A DNA stretch of 64,000 nucleotides, from sequence record SRR22947727_788; one strand, given 5' to 3'. The notes below the pieces were generated by a model. It was not told the origin of the DNA, did not search any database, and worked only from the letters and a program-made list of their open reading frames with translations. How positions within the stretch are numbered: position 1 is the first letter of the stretch; every line of letters starts with the position of its first letter. Positions 1-24,263 of the stretch are shown piece by piece. Both the position numbers and the translations under genes were made by a program.

Positions 1-81
1 CGCGAGGGGGGACTTGAACCCCCACGCCCTTGCGGGCACTGGCACCTGAAGCCAGCGCGTCTGCCATTCCGCCACTCGCGC
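1..81 (-). tRNA. tRNA-Leu(CAG), 3' end cut by window edge
   Basis: Reverse complement GCGCGAGTGGCGGAATGGCAGACGCGCTGGC-TTCAGGT-GCCAG...GGTTCAAGTCC...CTCGCG; cloverleaf with long variable arm, anticodon CAG. Confidence 0.95.
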
Positions 82-4068: not shown

Positions 4069-5510
4069 TCGCGCCTCTGCGTCGAGTGGGGATAGCCGTC
4101 ATGGCGCTCTTCGTCACGCTCTTTCTCTCCGCGAGCTACATCCAAGTTGTCGCCAGTGAGGAGATTGCTGACGACGATCGCAATGTCCGCAAGCTCTACG
4201 AAAGCTTCTCCGCGGAGCGAGGCCAGATTCTTGCCGGCGGTATCCCGATTGCGACTTCCATTCCCGTGGATAACCAATTCCGTTACTTGCGCACCTACCC
4301 ATATGCCGACCTCTATGCCCCGGTTGTCGGCTACTACACGCTGAATCAGGGCAATGCGGGAATAGAAAGCGCTCTCAACCCCGTGCTCACCGGGCGGGCT
4401 AGTTCTCAAATCCTCGACCAACTGACCGCTCTGGTCACTGGCTCCACGCCCGAAGGCGCCAGCGTCCAATTGACCCTCGACCCTGAGATTCAACAGATTG
4501 CCTATGACGCCATGGGGGACCGGCGGGGAGCCGTTGTGGTCTTGGACCCCGCCACTGGGCGCGTTCTCGCGATGGTCTCCACACCCTCCTATGACCCGAA
4601 CCTGCTGGCCGCACACTCCACGTCGTCTGTGCTGGGTGCCTACAACGAGCTCTCCGAGGACCCCGATAACCCTCTGGCGAATCGCGCGATCGCGGGAGAC
4701 CAATACTTCCCCGGCTCCGTGTTCAAAGTACTGATGACTGCTGCGGCACTGGAATCTGGCGACTACACCGCAGAGAGTGAATTTCTCAATCCCGCCGAGC
4801 TCCCACTTCCCCTGAGCACAAAGAGCATTAAGAACTCGGGAGGAAGGCTCTGCGGCGGGGAAGAGACAACGACCCTCGAGGAAGCTTTCCGGCTCAGCTG
4901 CAACATCCCCTACGCCGAGTTGGGTCTGGAACTCGGCGAAACAGCCATCGGATCGATGGCTGACGACTTTGGCTTCGGTGCCACGCTCGAGATTCCACTC
5001 CAAGTGACGCCCAGCAACTTCCCTCGAGGTCTCGATGACGCGCAGCTCATGCTGAGCTCTTTTGGTCAGTTCGATGTCAGGGTCACGCCCCTGCAGGTCG
5101 CCATGCTGAGCGCCGGAGTCGCCAACGGTGGGGTTCTGATGAAGCCCAACCTGGTGGACCAGGTCATTGCTCCCAACCTCCGTGTTCTGCAGTCCTATGA
5201 GCCCACGATCTACTCACGACCACTCAGTCCCCAGGTCGCCCAGGAGATGACCCGGATGATGGTCAACAACGTGAGTCAGGGTGTCGCCAGCGCTGCGAGA
5301 ATTCCAGGCATTAGCGTCGCAGGAAAGACAGGAACAGCGGAGACAGGAATCGGTGATGGTCGCTCATTCTGGTTCACCGGCTTTGCTCCTGCAGAAAACC
5401 CTGAGCTTGTCATCGCTGTGGTCATCGAAGGCTCGAGTACCGAGGGGACAGCGAACAGCGTCGCCTCTCCTGTGGCCAAGACGATCATGGAGGCGGTGAT
5501 CAGCCGATGA
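4065..5510 (+). CDS. pbpA: Class B penicillin-binding protein PbpA
   Basis: SxxK (GSVFK), SCN, KTG motifs; follows rodA. Confidence 0.93.
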   Translation: MIAPLRRVGIAVMALFVTLFLSASYIQVVASEEIADDDRNVRKLYESFSAERGQILAGGIPIATSIPVDNQFRYLRTYPYADLYAPVVGYYTLNQGNAGIESALNPVLTGRASSQILDQLTALVTGSTPEGASVQLTLDPEIQQIAYDAMGDRRGAVVVLDPATGRVLAMVSTPSYDPNLLAAHSTSSVLGAYNELSEDPDNPLANRAIAGDQYFPGSVFKVLMTAAALESGDYTAESEFLNPAELPLPLSTKSIKNSGGRLCGGEETTTLEEAFRLSCNIPYAELGLELGETAIGSMADDFGFGATLEIPLQVTPSNFPRGLDDAQLMLSSFGQFDVRVTPLQVAMLSAGVANGGVLMKPNLVDQVIAPNLRVLQSYEPTIYSRPLSPQVAQEMTRMMVNNVSQGVASAARIPGISVAGKTGTAETGIGDGRSFWFTGFAPAENPELVIAVVIEGSSTEGTANSVASPVAKTIMEAVISR

Positions 5511-19888: not shown

Positions 19889-19945
19889 GTGGGGTTCGCC
19901 CTTAGATCGGCTTGTTTGAAGCCCTGTTTCTCGAAATTACAACTA
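19889..19945. repeat. Cassette-boundary repeat R1 (truncated copy)
   Basis: 19896-19945 aligns gaplessly to positions 22-71 of the 84-bp repeat; core reduced to GTGGGG; one TTACAACTA. Confidence 0.8.
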
Positions 19946-19969
19946 TTTTGGGAGTGCTAGCTTTTATGT

Positions 19970-20911
19970 GTGAAGAATAATCGGATTGCCTCGTTGTTCT
20001 CATCGCTAAGTCACAAACCTCTGAACGCCACTGCCGCGTTGAGCCTCCTTGGCATGCTGACGGTCGTGCTCCTCTATGCGGTTGACACGCGGGAAATTCT
20101 CGGGGTGTCCGTGTGGGAGAAGCCCCTCAAGTTCCTAATCTCTGCGACAGTCTATGCAACGACTTTTTCCTGGCTTTACGCCTTCGTCGACAAAGGCAAA
20201 AAGCTTGCATCCCTGATGGGGAGCCTCATCGCAATCATGCTGGTTGTCGAACTCATTGCGATCACAGGCATGGCATCTGTGGGCTCCACGAGCCACTTCA
20301 ACGTATCTACACCGTTCAACATCGCCGTATGGTCTGTCATGGCGACCGCAATCTCGATCGTCTGGGTAGCAACCTTCCTGCTCTCTGCCGGCCTGTGGAA
20401 TTCCGGAAGGATGTCCGCCGACCTTCGGCTTGCGGTCCGATGGGCTATCGGCCTCGGGCTTGCGGGGATGGGCATTGCCTTCACCATGACACCCCCTCAG
20501 CCACAACAAACTCTTCCTGAGAATTGGGCTGGAGTTGCAGGCGCACATACTGTCGGGGCTGCAGACGGTGGGCCGGGTCTACCCTTTTTTGGCTGGTCTA
20601 CTGATGCAGGAGACCTCCGTGTCTCTCATTTTTTTGGCCTTCACGCGCTGCAGGTACTGCCGCTGGTGGCGCTCCTTCTCTCCGTGCTTGTCGCGAGCGA
20701 CAGACTTCGGGTGGCGACGATTACTGGAGTTGCTACGAGCTACACTCTCGTGGTTGCGTTTACCTATGTCCAAGCGTTGCTCGGGCAAACGATCGCCCAA
20801 GCATCAACTCTCGTAGCTTTGGGCAGCATTCTGCTCCTGGGGCTCACCGTTGCAGGTTTTACCTATAGACGCTCTTCGAAAACCACTGCGGGCAATGTTC
20901 GTGGAGCCTAG
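19970..20911 (+). CDS. Cassette 1 cargo: hypothetical multi-pass membrane protein
   Basis: 313 aa; WEKPLKF, GAHTVGAADGGPGLP..GWST..GDLRV.HF.GLHALQ; TAG stop lies inside repeat R2. Confidence 0.8.
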   Translation: MKNNRIASLFSSLSHKPLNATAALSLLGMLTVVLLYAVDTREILGVSVWEKPLKFLISATVYATTFSWLYAFVDKGKKLASLMGSLIAIMLVVELIAITGMASVGSTSHFNVSTPFNIAVWSVMATAISIVWVATFLLSAGLWNSGRMSADLRLAVRWAIGLGLAGMGIAFTMTPPQPQQTLPENWAGVAGAHTVGAADGGPGLPFFGWSTDAGDLRVSHFFGLHALQVLPLVALLLSVLVASDRLRVATITGVATSYTLVVAFTYVQALLGQTIAQASTLVALGSILLLGLTVAGFTYRRSSKTTAGNVRGA

Positions 20912-20984
20912 CTAGATCCACCCGGCCTCACATTGGCTTGTTTGAGGGGCTGTTTTCCAGAATTACAACAATAAATTACAACTA
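20901..20984. repeat. Cassette-boundary repeat R2 (84 bp, att-like)
   Basis: GTGGAGCCTAGCTAGATCCAC...AATTACAACAATAAATTACAACTA; first 11 nt identical to 24097-24107 (tRNA-Ala 3' end). Confidence 0.92.
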
Positions 20985-21054
20985 CCCGACTCAAAGTGCA
21001 GGTCAAAAAAATCTTCGTGAGGCTCACCTTTCCCCGCTGCTTTAGATTTGTCTC

Positions 21055-21483
21055 ATGACCTCATTCAGCATCACTGAGCTTGGCCCACTCTCTTCCTGGA
21101 GAGACTTTGTCGGAGGTTTTCGGCCCGACACAACACGCCCGGGACGACGTGTCGTTGATCACGAGGTCATAGGAGAAGTCATCGGCTTCACCGCGAACTC
21201 TTACGAACCCGGAGAACAGGCTGGTTACTGGCATGTCCATTCTGTTCTCGAAGAGGTCTATATCTTTCTTGAAGGAGAAGGCCAGATGGGGCTTGATTCC
21301 GAGATAGTAGACGTCCACCCAGGGACAGTTGTTCTAGTCAAGCCTGGGGTTATGAGAACGTGGAGATGCAAGCCAGACAGCTCCACAAACTTGAAATGGA
21401 TATGTGTCAGAGCTGGCCAACGTCCGCTCCCGCCGGTGCCAGATGATGCCGAGCCTCTGTGGGGCTTGGAACTTCCGTGGTGA
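21055..21483 (+). CDS. Cassette 2 cargo: cupin domain protein
   Basis: PGE..YWHVH..EEVYIFLEGEG, PGTVV.V.PG..R; ATG 6 nt after TAGATT. Confidence 0.82.
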   Translation: MTSFSITELGPLSSWRDFVGGFRPDTTRPGRRVVDHEVIGEVIGFTANSYEPGEQAGYWHVHSVLEEVYIFLEGEGQMGLDSEIVDVHPGTVVLVKPGVMRTWRCKPDSSTNLKWICVRAGQRPLPPVPDDAEPLWGLELPW

Positions 21484-21488
21484 ATTTT

Positions 21489-21572
21489 GTGGAGCCTAGT
21501 TGGATCCACTCGCCCCTACATCGGCTTGTTTGAGGGTCTGTTTTTGGAAATTACAACTAAAAATTACAACTA
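21489..21572. repeat. Cassette-boundary repeat R3 (84 bp, att-like)
   Basis: GTGGAGCCTAGTTGGATCCAC...AATTACAACTAAAAATTACAACTA. Confidence 0.92.
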
Positions 21573-21648
21573 TGTTTCCGACAGTGCTTGATGGCAATCC
21601 TGTGCAGCTATACCTTCCACAAACGTCACCCGGTTTCACTATCGAGCA

Positions 21649-21885
21649 TTAGGTGACTTTGCGTTTCCGAATCTTGTGGACAACCACAAGCACAACGGAC
21701 AAAAAGATTCCGAATAACCCCAAAATCACTGCAAAGGATGCAAGCCCTAACGCCCAGAACTCCTCAATCAACCATCCGTTTTCGTCTACATACGACCCAA
21801 CACTGTTGTAGTAAACAGCAAGAAGAAAAGCAGAGAAAAATAGACAACAGGAGACAACCAAGAGAGCTTTCACAAAGCGAGTCAT
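21649..21885 (-). CDS. Cassette 3 cargo: small two-TM protein, DUF3955-like
   Basis: 78 aa, TM-GSYVDENGWLIEEF-TM-basic tail; ATG 7 nt after TAGGCT. Confidence 0.7.
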   Translation of the reverse strand: MTRFVKALLVVSCCLFFSAFLLAVYYNSVGSYVDENGWLIEEFWALGLASFAVILGLFGIFLSVVLVVVHKIRKRKVT

Positions 21886-21952
21886 AGCTGCGAGCCTACG
21901 GGAAGAAATTCCTCGAATACGGCCTGACGGGACGAGGCCTGATTGTGATTTG

Positions 21953-22036
21953 GTGGAGCCGAGTCAGATCCAATCGGCCTTAGATCGGCCTGTTTGAGCT
22001 TCTGTTTTTCGAGGTTACAACTAAAAATTACAACTA
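21953..22036. repeat. Cassette-boundary repeat R4 (84 bp, att-like)
   Basis: GTGGAGCCGAGTCAGATCCAA...GGTTACAACTAAAAATTACAACTA. Confidence 0.92.
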
Positions 22037-22179
22037 TTTTCTGGTTTTCCGAGAGTCAAACCGCACATATGCGTCCCCGAAAGTAAATCAATAGCCCTGC
22101 AACAAACCCAAATTCCCACCCAATTGTCCAATACCGAATTATCAGTTTGCTATTGCCGGGCTAGTTCTCGTCGCATGGG

Positions 22180-23544
22180 TTATTCCTGCGGCCCTGATTC
22201 AATTGACCAGAAATTGACGGTGTCCTTAAATGGTGTCTCTGGAGGATAAATCCAATCTGGTACCCCCTCGGAAAGGTCATAATTTTTCATAAAATCCTCA
22301 TACTCATCGTAAAAATCATCCATAGTCATCCCAACGTGCTTTTCGAACGACCCGTGCCATCCCAGCCGCCACGAATCCTCCAAGATGGAAACCATAGTGA
22401 TCTCTGGCGAAGTGATGTGCATAAGATAACGGGCCATAAGGTTCCAGTGATCTACGTCGCACTCTGCTGCATGTCCATTCGCCGTCCCATTGTCCCACTC
22501 CTGACGAGCATCGACCTCTGTACAGGGGCCGCCGGACTGCATCCTCTTTATGTAGGCCACGAATTCATCTTCAAACCAACCGCAGCACGAACCAGCAATG
22601 GCGTATTTCGTCTTAAATATTTGAGACGGCCAGTCCTCTTTGCTAGCGACAATCTCGTCGTACCCTAAGCCGCTTTTTTTAGTCACATCAAACTCGTCAA
22701 AATGATCACGAAGAATCCACCCTGGCGAAAGTTGCGCGGTCCCCTCCATCCACCACCTAGGAGCGAAACCGTCGGGGGGCATCGGAGCATCTGGGCCGTT
22801 CCCCTCAGAACCCTCCTTGCCGAGCTGGTGCGCTCTTTGAACATGGTGATGGTATTCGTGAATTAGCCCGTTGAGCATCCGGTACTGGATCGCTGGCAAA
22901 CCATAAAACTCCAGTTCGTCGGGATTGGATATCACTAACCGGTTATTGCAAAACGAATAGGCGTCGCGAACACGGTCTGGTCCACTGCTAAAGCCACTGA
23001 GGCACGAAGCCCGCTCATTTACAAGACTGAAATCGGGGGTAACGCCAGGTTCAAAGTTGTACTCAAAATACCCCAAGCCATCGAGGCCGTCGACTAGTTC
23101 TCGATTTTGGAAGCTTTCGTCTGGGTTGTAACTTGCTAAAACCCAGCGGTCGTAACCGCCGAAATTATCGATAAGAATATCCATCATCTTAAGGACATCG
23201 CCTCGCCATTCGGGGGTCACGTTGTCTCCAAAGAAAATGTGGAACTCGGGATCCCTCTTGGGTATGTTCATCCCCTCGTTCGCGAGCCACAGACCGTCTT
23301 CGAGAAATTCTTTAGGCAAATCCTCGCCACCAACAGGGCAGTAACGGTGTGTATAGTTTGCCGCTGAAATCTCAGATTCCCTCGTCGGTGGTTCACATGG
23401 TGGTGAAGCTTCGGACGTTGTTTCAGTTGGAGGAGCTGACACCTCGGTCAATTCCGCGGCACTTTCAGACGAAGAATCGTCGCCTGCGCAGCTAGCTAAC
23501 GTGAGACTTGCAACCATGGCCAAAACCGCAAACTTTTTATACAT
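22180..23544 (-). CDS. Cassette 4 cargo: lipoprotein with HExxH (zincin-like) motif
   Basis: MYKKFAVLAMVASLTLASC lipobox; IHEYHH then WWMEGTA; SD GGAG; promoter TTGAAC-N17-TACTTT (23611-23583). Confidence 0.75.
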   Translation of the reverse strand: MYKKFAVLAMVASLTLASCAGDDSSSESAAELTEVSAPPTETTSEASPPCEPPTRESEISAANYTHRYCPVGGEDLPKEFLEDGLWLANEGMNIPKRDPEFHIFFGDNVTPEWRGDVLKMMDILIDNFGGYDRWVLASYNPDESFQNRELVDGLDGLGYFEYNFEPGVTPDFSLVNERASCLSGFSSGPDRVRDAYSFCNNRLVISNPDELEFYGLPAIQYRMLNGLIHEYHHHVQRAHQLGKEGSEGNGPDAPMPPDGFAPRWWMEGTAQLSPGWILRDHFDEFDVTKKSGLGYDEIVASKEDWPSQIFKTKYAIAGSCCGWFEDEFVAYIKRMQSGGPCTEVDARQEWDNGTANGHAAECDVDHWNLMARYLMHITSPEITMVSILEDSWRLGWHGSFEKHVGMTMDDFYDEYEDFMKNYDLSEGVPDWIYPPETPFKDTVNFWSIESGPQE

Positions 23545-23729
23545 AACGCTCCGCCCCCGCACTAAGTCAAAAATTCGGTGAAAAAGTATCACGGCCGACC
23601 CACCAGTTCAACCCTTTGAACTGCGGGTTAGAGGACCGTTTTGGGCTAGCGGGTGTTGTTATTGGCGCTATTGAACATTTACCCGACCCCCGGAAAAGGC
23701 CGGTAGGTACACCCCCAAGGTAAATCCTC

Positions 23730-23813
23730 GTGGGGCCTATTTAGATCCACTCGGCCTTAGATCGCCGTTTTTGGGCCTCTGTTTTTCAAAATTACAACTA
23801 AAAATTACAGCTA
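23730..23813. repeat. Cassette-boundary repeat R5 (84 bp, att-like)
   Basis: GTGGGGCCTATTTAGATCCAC...AATTACAACTAAAAATTACAGCTA. Confidence 0.92.
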
Positions 23814-23894
23814 TTCGACATTCTTGAAATCCCGTTATTGTGACGCGCGGTCTTCGATCGAAGTTGATTCTTTATCCACCGGCAGAGTGGTTGC

Positions 23895-24089
23895 ATGCTT
23901 TGGTGGATCGCAATGATTGCAATCGGCGTGTGGATGGCCATGAGTGGCTTTACGAAATCGAACGCGACACCGTTCAAATACCTTTTGGCAAGGGCAGCGT
24001 TGGTCTGGAAATCCAAAGCACACAGCTTCTTAGGTTTCTCAGGTGTAGTAGCTGCTCTAGTTGGAGCGTTTCTCCTGATTAGTAAATAA
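23895..24089 (+). CDS. Cassette 5 cargo: small hydrophobic membrane protein
   Basis: 64 aa with two hydrophobic segments; fills the space between R5 and tRNA-Ala. Confidence 0.6.
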   Translation: MLWWIAMIAIGVWMAMSGFTKSNATPFKYLLARAALVWKSKAHSFLGFSGVVAALVGAFLLISK

Positions 24090-24097
24090 TTTCGTCG

Positions 24098-24170
24098 TGG
24101 AGCCTAGGGGAATCGAACCCCTGACCTCCTGCTTGCAAAGCAGGCGCTCTACCAATTGAGCTAAGGCCCC
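24098..24170 (-). tRNA. tRNA-Ala(TGC)
   Basis: GGGGCCTTAGCTCAATTGGTAGAGCGCCTGC-TTTGCAA-GCAGG...GGTTCGATTCCCCTAGGCTCCA; CCA not encoded. Confidence 0.97.
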
Positions 24171-24189
24171 TCATATATTTAGTTGTGCG

Positions 24190-24263
24190 TGGGGCTACCA
24201 GGACTTGAACCTGGGACCTCTTCGTTATCAGCGAAGCGCTCTAACCGCCTGAGCTATAGCCCC
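24190..24263 (-). tRNA. tRNA-Ile(GAT)
   Basis: GGGGCTATAGCTCAGGCGGTTAGAGCGCTTCG-CTGATAA-CGAAG...GGTTCAAGTCCTGGTAGCCCCA. Confidence 0.97.

Follow-up and report, generated by a model that had tools for sequence, protein, structure and literature searches.

The 64,000 nucleotides (nt) of sequence record SRR22947727_788 analysed here (hereafter the window) contain an array of related 84-base-pair (bp) repeats, R1 to R5, which ends beside the gene for transfer RNA (tRNA)-Ala(TGC) and whose nature is the subject of this report. The host is a small-genome marine actinobacterium, and the array is one found in streamlined marine Microbacteriaceae. It lies near the replication origin, where the gene order is dnaA, dnaN, recF, DciA, gyrB, gyrA, DUF3566, tRNA-Ile(GAT) and tRNA-Ala(TGC), and its G+C content is 0.50-0.53 vs 0.55-0.61 on the flanks. 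The segments between the repeats, which we call cassettes, mostly hold one gene apiece (Table 1).

R2 to R5, all on the + strand, are each 84 bp long and align without gaps, as an earlier sequence-only reading of the window had claimed. Their pairwise identities range from 65/84 to 71/84, and the hand counts given in that reading (70/84 for R2/R3 and again for R4/R5) are exact. The inverted core that it described at positions 1-21, GTGGAGC-N7-GATCCAC, holds without change for R2 and R3, while R4 departs from it by one mismatch and R5 by one or two. At the other end of the repeat are two direct copies of the 9-mer TTACAACTA, at positions 63-71 and 76-84 with a 13-bp period as noted there, of which the first box of R2 and the second of R5 each carry a single mismatch. 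This two-box pattern matches four times in the window compared with 0.00 expected (100 shuffles), and all seven exact matches to the 9-mer in the 64 kb fall within the repeats (0.04 expected). The T-tracts said to separate core from boxes are present at positions 38-43 and 51-57. Boxes had been reported on one side of the core only, which is true of every core in the window, none having a box to its left, but not of all relatives, since a second pair of boxes on the other arm occurs in two of the 31 cassette families described below.

The repeat appears to be confined to one genus. A sequence-only covariance model built from 10 copies and searched against sampled genomes matched 2 of 151 genomes of the family, both of the window's genus, and the repeat was found in 0 of 100 other genera of the family; within the genus, it is present in 16 of 38 genomes, many of which are fragmented. 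Scanning genome contigs with the two-box pattern returned at least 120 stretches, with true repeats in four loci (five copies) among the matches listed, and a metagenome scan with a pattern from the repeat body returned 55 distinct loci, 48 of them with repeats by nhmmer. In total, we collected 118 repeat hits across 67 loci, in genome and metagenome sets with at least one apparent overlap (L161 and L129, each from an 8040-nt contig, look like one and the same).

These copies show how far the length of the repeat, held to be invariant in the sequence-only reading, is fixed. Exactly 84 nt are found in 71 of the 75 copies that span the full model, and the other four have scattered indels of 1-2 nt; indels, whose free occurrence between core and boxes had been named as telling against a recombination site, are thus rare (4 of 75 copies). 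The same length is seen in 16 of 19 copies outside the metagenome seed pattern and in 8 of 11 outside both seed patterns. The copies diverge by about 20%, and the length is strongly, not absolutely, constrained. The consensus of 57 distinct copies has a perfect GTGGAGC-N7-GCTCCAC core in which T17 and C18 are invariant, with blocks of high information at positions 32-46, 50-56, 63-71 and 74-84 and variable stretches at 12-16, 24-31, 47-49 and 57-60. Seventeen copies stop at position 71 or 72 and hence have one box; because one and the same cassette can follow either a one-box or a two-box repeat, the difference amounts to a gain or loss of 13 bp between boxes. In many arrays, the outermost repeat is single-box or truncated.

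The core ties the repeat to the neighbouring tRNA gene. Positions 1-11 (GTGGAGCCTAG) repeat, in reverse complement, the 3' end of tRNA-Ala(TGC), 283 bp away from the array: a trailer base and the discriminator base, the acceptor stem's 3' strand and two bases of the T-stem. The identity measures 11 nt, or 13 nt when a conserved T at -2, present in 24 of 29 families, is counted. Past this point, the repeat occupies the place of the tRNA body, and the whole resembles a displaced tRNA end joined to foreign DNA, the hallmark of site-specific insertion at a tRNA gene. Lambda-type tyrosine integrases classically target the 3' ends of such genes. The arrangement is consistent throughout: wherever a repeat and tRNA-Ala(TGC) occur in one locus (26 of 26), the repeat is found 3' of the tRNA gene and on the opposite strand.

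Recombinant junctions were found at the same place. In L141 and L143, a repeat adjoins the flank that stands beside the tRNA in the window. Two other studies provided Logan contigs (runs X11 and X13) for comparison with the window: the X11 contig joins 21488 to 24097 through 11 letters compatible with both sides, and the X13 contig covers 21055-21499 and then continues into the tRNA body, so that in those populations the cupin cassette (F14) is the tRNA-adjacent one. Relative to them, the window has three further cassettes between the cupin cassette and the tRNA, and the break falls within the 11-base core. Other contigs, from X13 and from X14 (a run archived as RNA), lead from the end of the cassette with the 313-amino-acid (aa) gene (F1) through a repeat to the start of the 313-aa cassette (window 19921-20946). 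This joint could be a tandem copy or a circle, between which the depths in X13 (about 305 for the joint contig and 853 for the cassette) do not decide. In the nearest genome, G001, which is 98% identical over the left flank, the contig terminates exactly in the 11-base core, as contigs typically do when an assembly breaks at a repeat. The last 150 nt of that locus (L001, G001:C48), and also the sequence just left of tRNA-Ala in L128, hold what resembles the reverse-complemented 3' end of another tRNA, which may be the footprint of another integration system in the cassette end. Three loci (L137, L145 and L219) show other tRNAs near repeats; tRNA-Ala(GGC) and tRNA-Ala(CGC), in L219 and L145, give no support to secondary targets, since their 3' ends differ from the core.

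Comparison of repeat copies from different loci indicates where one unit ends and the next begins. Forty pairs of copies share the left flank only and 49 the right flank only, and similarity falls to the level of chance right at the two ends of the repeat, before position 1 and beyond position 84. Within the repeat, positions 1-11 track the left flank (identity 1.00 vs 0.91 in the right-flank-only pairs), and positions 22-62 track the right flank more closely (0.86-0.87 vs 0.79-0.80, over a baseline of 0.72-0.74). This split linkage puts the point of exchange at about positions 11-21 and assigns the repeat body to the cassette on its tRNA-proximal side.

The 78 cassettes bounded on both sides fall into 31 families of 257-2833 nt (median 965), most of them single-gene, and they form arrays of one to five units at tRNA-Ala, without an integrase. 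Their order varies. Two of the 10 copies of F0 adjoin the tRNA (in the window and in L144) and eight adjoin a repeat, F0 being internal or at the outer end in these other arrays. Outermost in the window, F1 is tRNA-adjacent in L170, and its family is found in eight further loci, at other array positions. The F3 family recurs in L162, L182 and L184, in differing order relative to F1: F1 precedes F3 in the window, and F3 precedes F1 in L182 and L184. The genes run in the direction of the repeat in 14 families and against it in 15. The cargo comprises transporters, acetyltransferases, a racemase, isochorismatases, small enzymes, and restriction and other defence genes. Cassettes with defence genes (GmrSD-like, DpnI-like, MrcB/NucS-like and methylases) occur in L174, L181, L203, L211 and L217, and the tRNA-Ala locus may be a small defence island.

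The second arm noted above is carried by the tRNA-adjacent cassettes of L205 and L211, in which a terminal TTACAACTA pair precedes the tRNA core by 63-76 nt. In L211, these boxes begin at about the end of the cargo open reading frame (ORF), which leaves no room for an integrase gene. A search for such a second arm beside a core found none: 0 of 139 box pairs from pattern hits have a core within 160 nt. The second pair is followed by a hairpin and T-run in both L205 (5000-5052) and L211 (2216-2254), and a conserved hairpin with T-run lies directly 3' of tRNA-Ala in 8 of the 78 cassettes, of five families and with six of the eight tRNA-adjacent; it is probably the terminator of the tRNA operon, brought along by incoming cassettes. 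At 565-742 of L211, two repeats are separated by just 18 nt, effectively an empty cassette or a repeat-repeat junction.

Among the genes of the window itself, the 313-aa ORF of F1 ends in a TAG stop codon that lies within the core of R2, and its translation, read by eye, points to a membrane protein. The 470-aa translation of F15 has an N-terminal hydrophobic stretch ending in cysteine (lipoprotein-like) and an HExxH-like motif, and the product may be a secreted metalloprotease; a 483-aa ORF stands in the corresponding cassette of L141. At the very start of the window (1-81, - strand) is a tRNA gene truncated by the window's edge (Rfam, 45.9 bits).

Table 1. Repeats, cassettes and tRNA genes of the array, in window coordinates.
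Feature	Position	Strand	Details
R1, partial outermost repeat	19897..19945	+	nhmmer; model positions 23-71; no core
R1 single TTACAACTA box	19937-19945	+	From the sequence
Cassette F1	19946..20900	+	One ORF 19970-20911, 313 aa; no Pfam match
R2	20901..20984	+	Core 20901-20921; boxes 20963-20971 (1 mismatch), 20976-20984
Cassette F14	20985..21488	+	Cupin-domain ORF 21055-21483, 142 aa; Pfam Cupin_2, E 9.5e-10
R3	21489..21572	+	Core 21489-21509; boxes 21551-21559, 21564-21572
Cassette F3	21573..21952	- (opposite to repeats)	ORF 21649-21885, 78 aa; Pfam DUF3955, E 1.8e-5
R4	21953..22036	+	Core 21953-21973; boxes 22015-22023, 22028-22036
Cassette F15	22037..23729	-	ORF 22180-23592, 470 aa; no Pfam match
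R5	23730..23813	+	Core 23730-23750, mismatch(es) in left half; boxes 23792-23800, 23805-23813 (1 mismatch)
Cassette F0, 283 bp	23814..24096	+	80-aa ORF 23840-24082; nearest to tRNA in the window
Putative attB core	24097..24107	-	tRNA-Ala 3' end, identical to repeat positions 1-11
tRNA-Ala(TGC), array anchor	24097..24170	-	ARAGORN; Rfam tRNA, 76.5 bits
tRNA-Ile(GAT), conserved neighbour	24189..24263	-	Followed by DUF3566, gyrA, gyrB

The same layout recurs in elements at tRNA-Ala that do carry an integrase. A 4350-nt contig of G159, a genome of the same genus, has the core at its first base followed by two copies of GTAGCCTAT at about +65 and +78 (L243). Pairs of this box with the 13-bp period lie at 65-87 and 4307-4329 of the contig, the latter just upstream of a gene for a 418-aa integrase, and the other genes are an acetyltransferase and a DUF4379 protein. 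Relatives of the L243 integrase (E 1e-30 or better) were found in 5 of 401 sampled genomes of the family, and the two best of them adjoin tRNA-Ile and tRNA-Ala(TGC). In G343, a genome of another genus whose integrase is 42% identical to that of L243, we were able to delimit the whole 5.6-kb element: at the tRNA-proximal end, two copies of TTTTACGCCG with the 13-bp period occupy the interval from the integrase gene to tRNA-Ala, and the distal site consists of the core (GTGGA...TCCAC) with a TTTTACGCCG pair at about +62 and +75, spaced as in the repeats of the window. The distal site of G254, likewise outside the genus, is identical to the tRNA over 20 nt and has boxes with the 13-bp period at about +74 and +87. 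The distance from core to boxes thus matches in G343 and is offset by 3 nt in L243 and by 12 nt in G254. Across four different box sequences, the 13-bp spacing is constant, the core-to-box distance similar and the core the same. Judged by its layout, the repeat is the predicted core-plus-one-arm half of an attachment site of the phage type (attP) of the L243/G343 integrase family, and boxes that are specific to each element and keep their spacing are as would be expected of arm-type sites read by an integrase DNA-binding domain.

Two side observations concern the genes of these elements. The large protein of repeated DUF4379 treble-clef zinc-finger units encoded at 1172-3031 of L243 has counterparts in the repeat-bounded cassettes L220 (67-1518) and L179 (2044-2511), and the G343 element (L264, 4558-6529) carries restriction and other defence genes.

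The identity to the tRNA, the junctions in the core, the anatomy of the integrase-bearing elements and the mobility of the cassettes all support the sequence-only reading's proposal of a lambda-type tyrosine-recombinase site. Our view is that the 84-bp repeats are likely to be one-armed sites of the attP/attR type, used by tyrosine integrases that target the 3' end of tRNA-Ala(TGC). The site consists of the core at positions 1-21 (inverted 7-mers around a 7-bp spacer), a spacer with T-tracts and two boxes of 9-10 bp at about +62 and +75. A repeat body, from about position 12, and the tRNA-proximal gene or genes travel together and make up a cassette without an integrase. Through a crossover within the core, the cassette would enter either at another repeat or at the end of the tRNA gene, so that its predecessors would be displaced outward and the outermost repeat would decay. 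The enzyme may be a TTACAACTA-specific integrase of the L243/G343 family, with its arm-binding domain on the boxes and its catalytic domains on the core, which the fixed spacer and its T-tracts would allow it to bridge. We suggest that it is a circular form of the cassette that would recombine with the tRNA end or another repeat, and that the integrase would act in trans, from rare complete elements.

A number of observations weigh against this interpretation. A complete attP has arm sites on both arms and a cognate integrase on the same element, and the window sites have neither. Pfam searches found no recombinase among the 32 ORFs between 8991 and 38872 of the window, no integrase in the 29 + 51 ORFs of the relatives' loci and none in the metagenome contigs in 93 of the 104 ORF clusters (all but the 11 shortest). 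Neither the 67 loci with repeats nor the PF00589 hits from the 38 genomes of the genus, nor three scans of IMG/VR, yielded an integrase with TTACAACTA boxes. The two PF00589 genes of the complete genus genome G034 score as XerD and XerC-like, and G034 has no resolvase. Of the seven bases of the spacer, only the first 4-5 agree with the tRNA, and most tyrosine recombinases require identity across the spacer. Conservation at positions 41-69 and in the boxes is partly inflated by the seed patterns of the searches, and the cassette orders come mostly from metagenome contigs, which are prone to mis-joining at repeats. To these must be added the tandem-copy option for the joint of the 313-aa cassette and the single raw-read run, X20, which had 0 reads on the window and is hence uninformative on circles or rare excision.

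The searches yielded some further results on recombinases and on where the repeat is found. The scan of ORF clusters returned one truncated resolvase (L220) and one insertion-sequence-type rve transposase (L145). Some genomes of the genus carry extra integrases, and we examined 16 regions around non-Xer PF00589 hits. The core is present in L243 only; in those regions that bear a tRNA, the gene is one for tRNA-Pro, Lys, Arg, Ser or Leu, and the rest have none. Next to another tRNA-linked integrase of the genus (L239, 1239-1267; tRNA-Pro), a direct repeat with the 13-bp period likewise lies near the tRNA, and such a pairing of boxes may be widespread among these integrases. A phage origin of the repeat was considered and set aside, the IMG/VR scans with the body, core and two-box patterns having returned 1, 0 and 18 loci, none with the repeat; in those loci, the matches of model R1 were limited to the boxes or to a short stretch of the body, in AT-rich DNA.

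The main rival explanation, which we regard as unlikely, is that the repeats are inert scars: complete elements would have integrated serially at tRNA-Ala and then lost their integrase modules, leaving the repeats as leftover attR sites whose conserved positions reflect selection on the donor attP and not in the array. There is no integrase in cis or in the genomes, as this explanation would have it, and the truncated or single-box outermost repeats are expected of decay with age. Decay after serial integration is, moreover, a documented route to cis-mobilizable elements, in the portion of PMC5704250 that bears on them, and to arrays of partial tRNAs in Prochlorococcus islands, in the corresponding portion of 10.1101/2020.12.28.424599. 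Yet a tblastn search (E 1e-3) of the window and 64 array loci for remnants of an integrase, with that of L243 as the query, came back empty, and the cassettes stop exactly at the next core, with unrelated sequence there. Nor do insertion at the tRNA and deletion alone give the permuted order of F1 and F3 in the window and in L182 and L184, and in L211 the second box pair at the end of the cargo ORF leaves no space for a lost integrase. It is considerably less probable still that the cassettes are exchanged by homologous recombination only, after DNA uptake, with the repeat and tRNA as homology anchors and no site-specific enzyme acting today. Exact runs of 20-30 nt common to the repeats, and the failure to find a dedicated recombinase, agree with such exchange, but the tRNA and the repeat are identical over just 11-13 nt, too short for RecA-type exchange, and junctions occur there nonetheless; the gain of repeats by unrelated genes, the constraint on length and the anatomy held in common with integrase elements are also left unexplained.

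That the host's own XerC and XerD recombine the repeats, as they do for Xer-exploiting elements or pdif modules, is in our opinion very improbable. The complete genome G034 and G001-G003 hold no tyrosine recombinases besides these (exactly two PF00589 genes each), and the core is indeed an inverted repeat with a short spacer. It has, however, no obvious likeness to dif, its arms and its spacer being 7 bp each where a dif site is laid out as 11-6-11; arm-type boxes are not a feature of Xer sites, and there is a dedicated family of integrases whose sites share the anatomy of the repeat. A crude pattern for the inner arms of dif, CATAA-N6-TTATG, had 0 matches in five genomes and did not identify the dif site of the genus. 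Least credible of all is a role of the repeat in RNA or regulation, as a structured small RNA or terminator or as a promoter or operator of the neighbouring genes. In its favour are the T-tracts, contigs over part of R5 in a run archived as RNA, and one terminator-like hit within R1. Folding of 57 copies with RNAalifold nevertheless gave 0 pairs on either strand and so did not bear out the structured RNA that the sequence-only reading had named as a refutation of its proposal, and neither promoter-like (3 vs 3.4 expected) nor terminator-like sites (7 vs 5.1 expected) are enriched; a regulatory role also sits poorly with genes that face both ways and leaves the tRNA-end identity and the junctions unexplained. 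On 10 copies, RNAalifold gave -0.35 kcal/mol and three weak pairs without covariation, and Rfam at gathering thresholds reported only tRNAs and nothing in the array region.

The reading of the repeats as one-armed integrase sites also bears comparison with systems already described. Like the attP and attR sites of the lambda-type integrases of phages and actinomycete integrative elements that target tRNA genes, they combine an inverted core with identity to the tRNA 3' end and direct-repeat boxes at a fixed distance, and the tRNA is left intact with a direct repeat of its end created. Unlike a lambda-type attP, the window sites are one-armed, they sit on cassettes of 0.26-2.8 kb without integrase or excisionase, and their identity to the tRNA is 11-13 nt. 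Another parallel is with the cis-mobilizable or accretion elements of the Streptococcus ICESt1 type, which, in the part of PMC5704250 that treats them, are att-flanked tandem units without an integrase at the 3' end of a target, mobile only with the integrase of a related element. The same part presents them as decayed large elements, usually one or two in tandem, whereas the arrays described here have up to five mostly one-gene units, from 31 families in a genus, and no visible remnants of decay. The tycheposon islands of Prochlorococcus resemble the array in their streamlined marine genome, their position next to a tRNA, their partial-tRNA repeats and their older units pushed outward (preprint 10.1101/2020.12.28.424599). 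Tycheposons have their own recombinase, a replication or packaging module and tRNA-fragment repeats of about 40 nt (same source), in contrast to the window repeat, which consists largely of element arm, has only 11-13 nt of tRNA and belongs to units without a recombinase.

The array also invites comparison with the integrons. Integron arrays consist mostly of single-gene cassettes with imperfect sites, in variable order from a fixed insertion point, and some have no nearby integrase; single-gene cassettes with their own sites, a variable order and a fixed primary insertion point are found here as well. The repeat was rejected as an integron attC site: it is not palindromic overall, no hairpin is predicted for it, and it ends in a tRNA-like core and direct repeats where attC has inverted RYYYAAC/GTTRRRY. 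IntI was rejected as the recombinase, for only XerC- and XerD-like proteins were found and integron-integrase models scored far below their cut-off (e.g. 123 vs 265 bits). Unlike integrons, moreover, the array has a tRNA end and not attI as its primary site, its genes run in both directions, and the related recombinases are of the lambda type with arm sites. We are aware of no report of integrons in this phylum. More tentatively than for the sites themselves, and at somewhat less than even chances, we propose that the locus is a functional analogue of an integron, in which at least 31 families of integrase-less one-armed cassettes, mostly of a single gene, would be captured, stacked and reshuffled on a tRNA-Ala platform by a tyrosine integrase that rare complete elements provide in trans, giving strain-level differences in gene content, restriction and defence included, in genomes of 1.2-1.8 Mb.

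The individual parts of this system are known: integration at tRNA 3' ends, arm-type sites, tandem accretion, cis-mobilizable elements and partial-tRNA arrays have all been described, as the cited portions of PMC5704250 and 10.1101/2020.12.28.424599 attest. Their combination, in one-armed sites on integrase-less, mostly single-gene cassettes of which up to five are stacked and 31 families occur in one genus, looks new. A literature search aimed at the locus found no description of it, which is not proof that none exists. The available part of the paper on the type-strain genome of the genus (PMC6106888) reports no gene that could be called phage-derived and, by a search for the term, makes no mention of an integrase; the locus is not mentioned there either.

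Streamlined planktonic bacteria vary in gene content from strain to strain, often without obvious mobile elements, and the locus offers a testable mechanism for such variation, with one tRNA gene serving as the landing pad for small cassettes that carry a minimal one-armed att site. The same core combined with 13-bp-spaced boxes of four different sequences provides a natural series in which the geometry of arm sites can be set against the specificity of integrases. If the cassettes do move in trans, this would be an integron-like way of working built from lambda-type parts.

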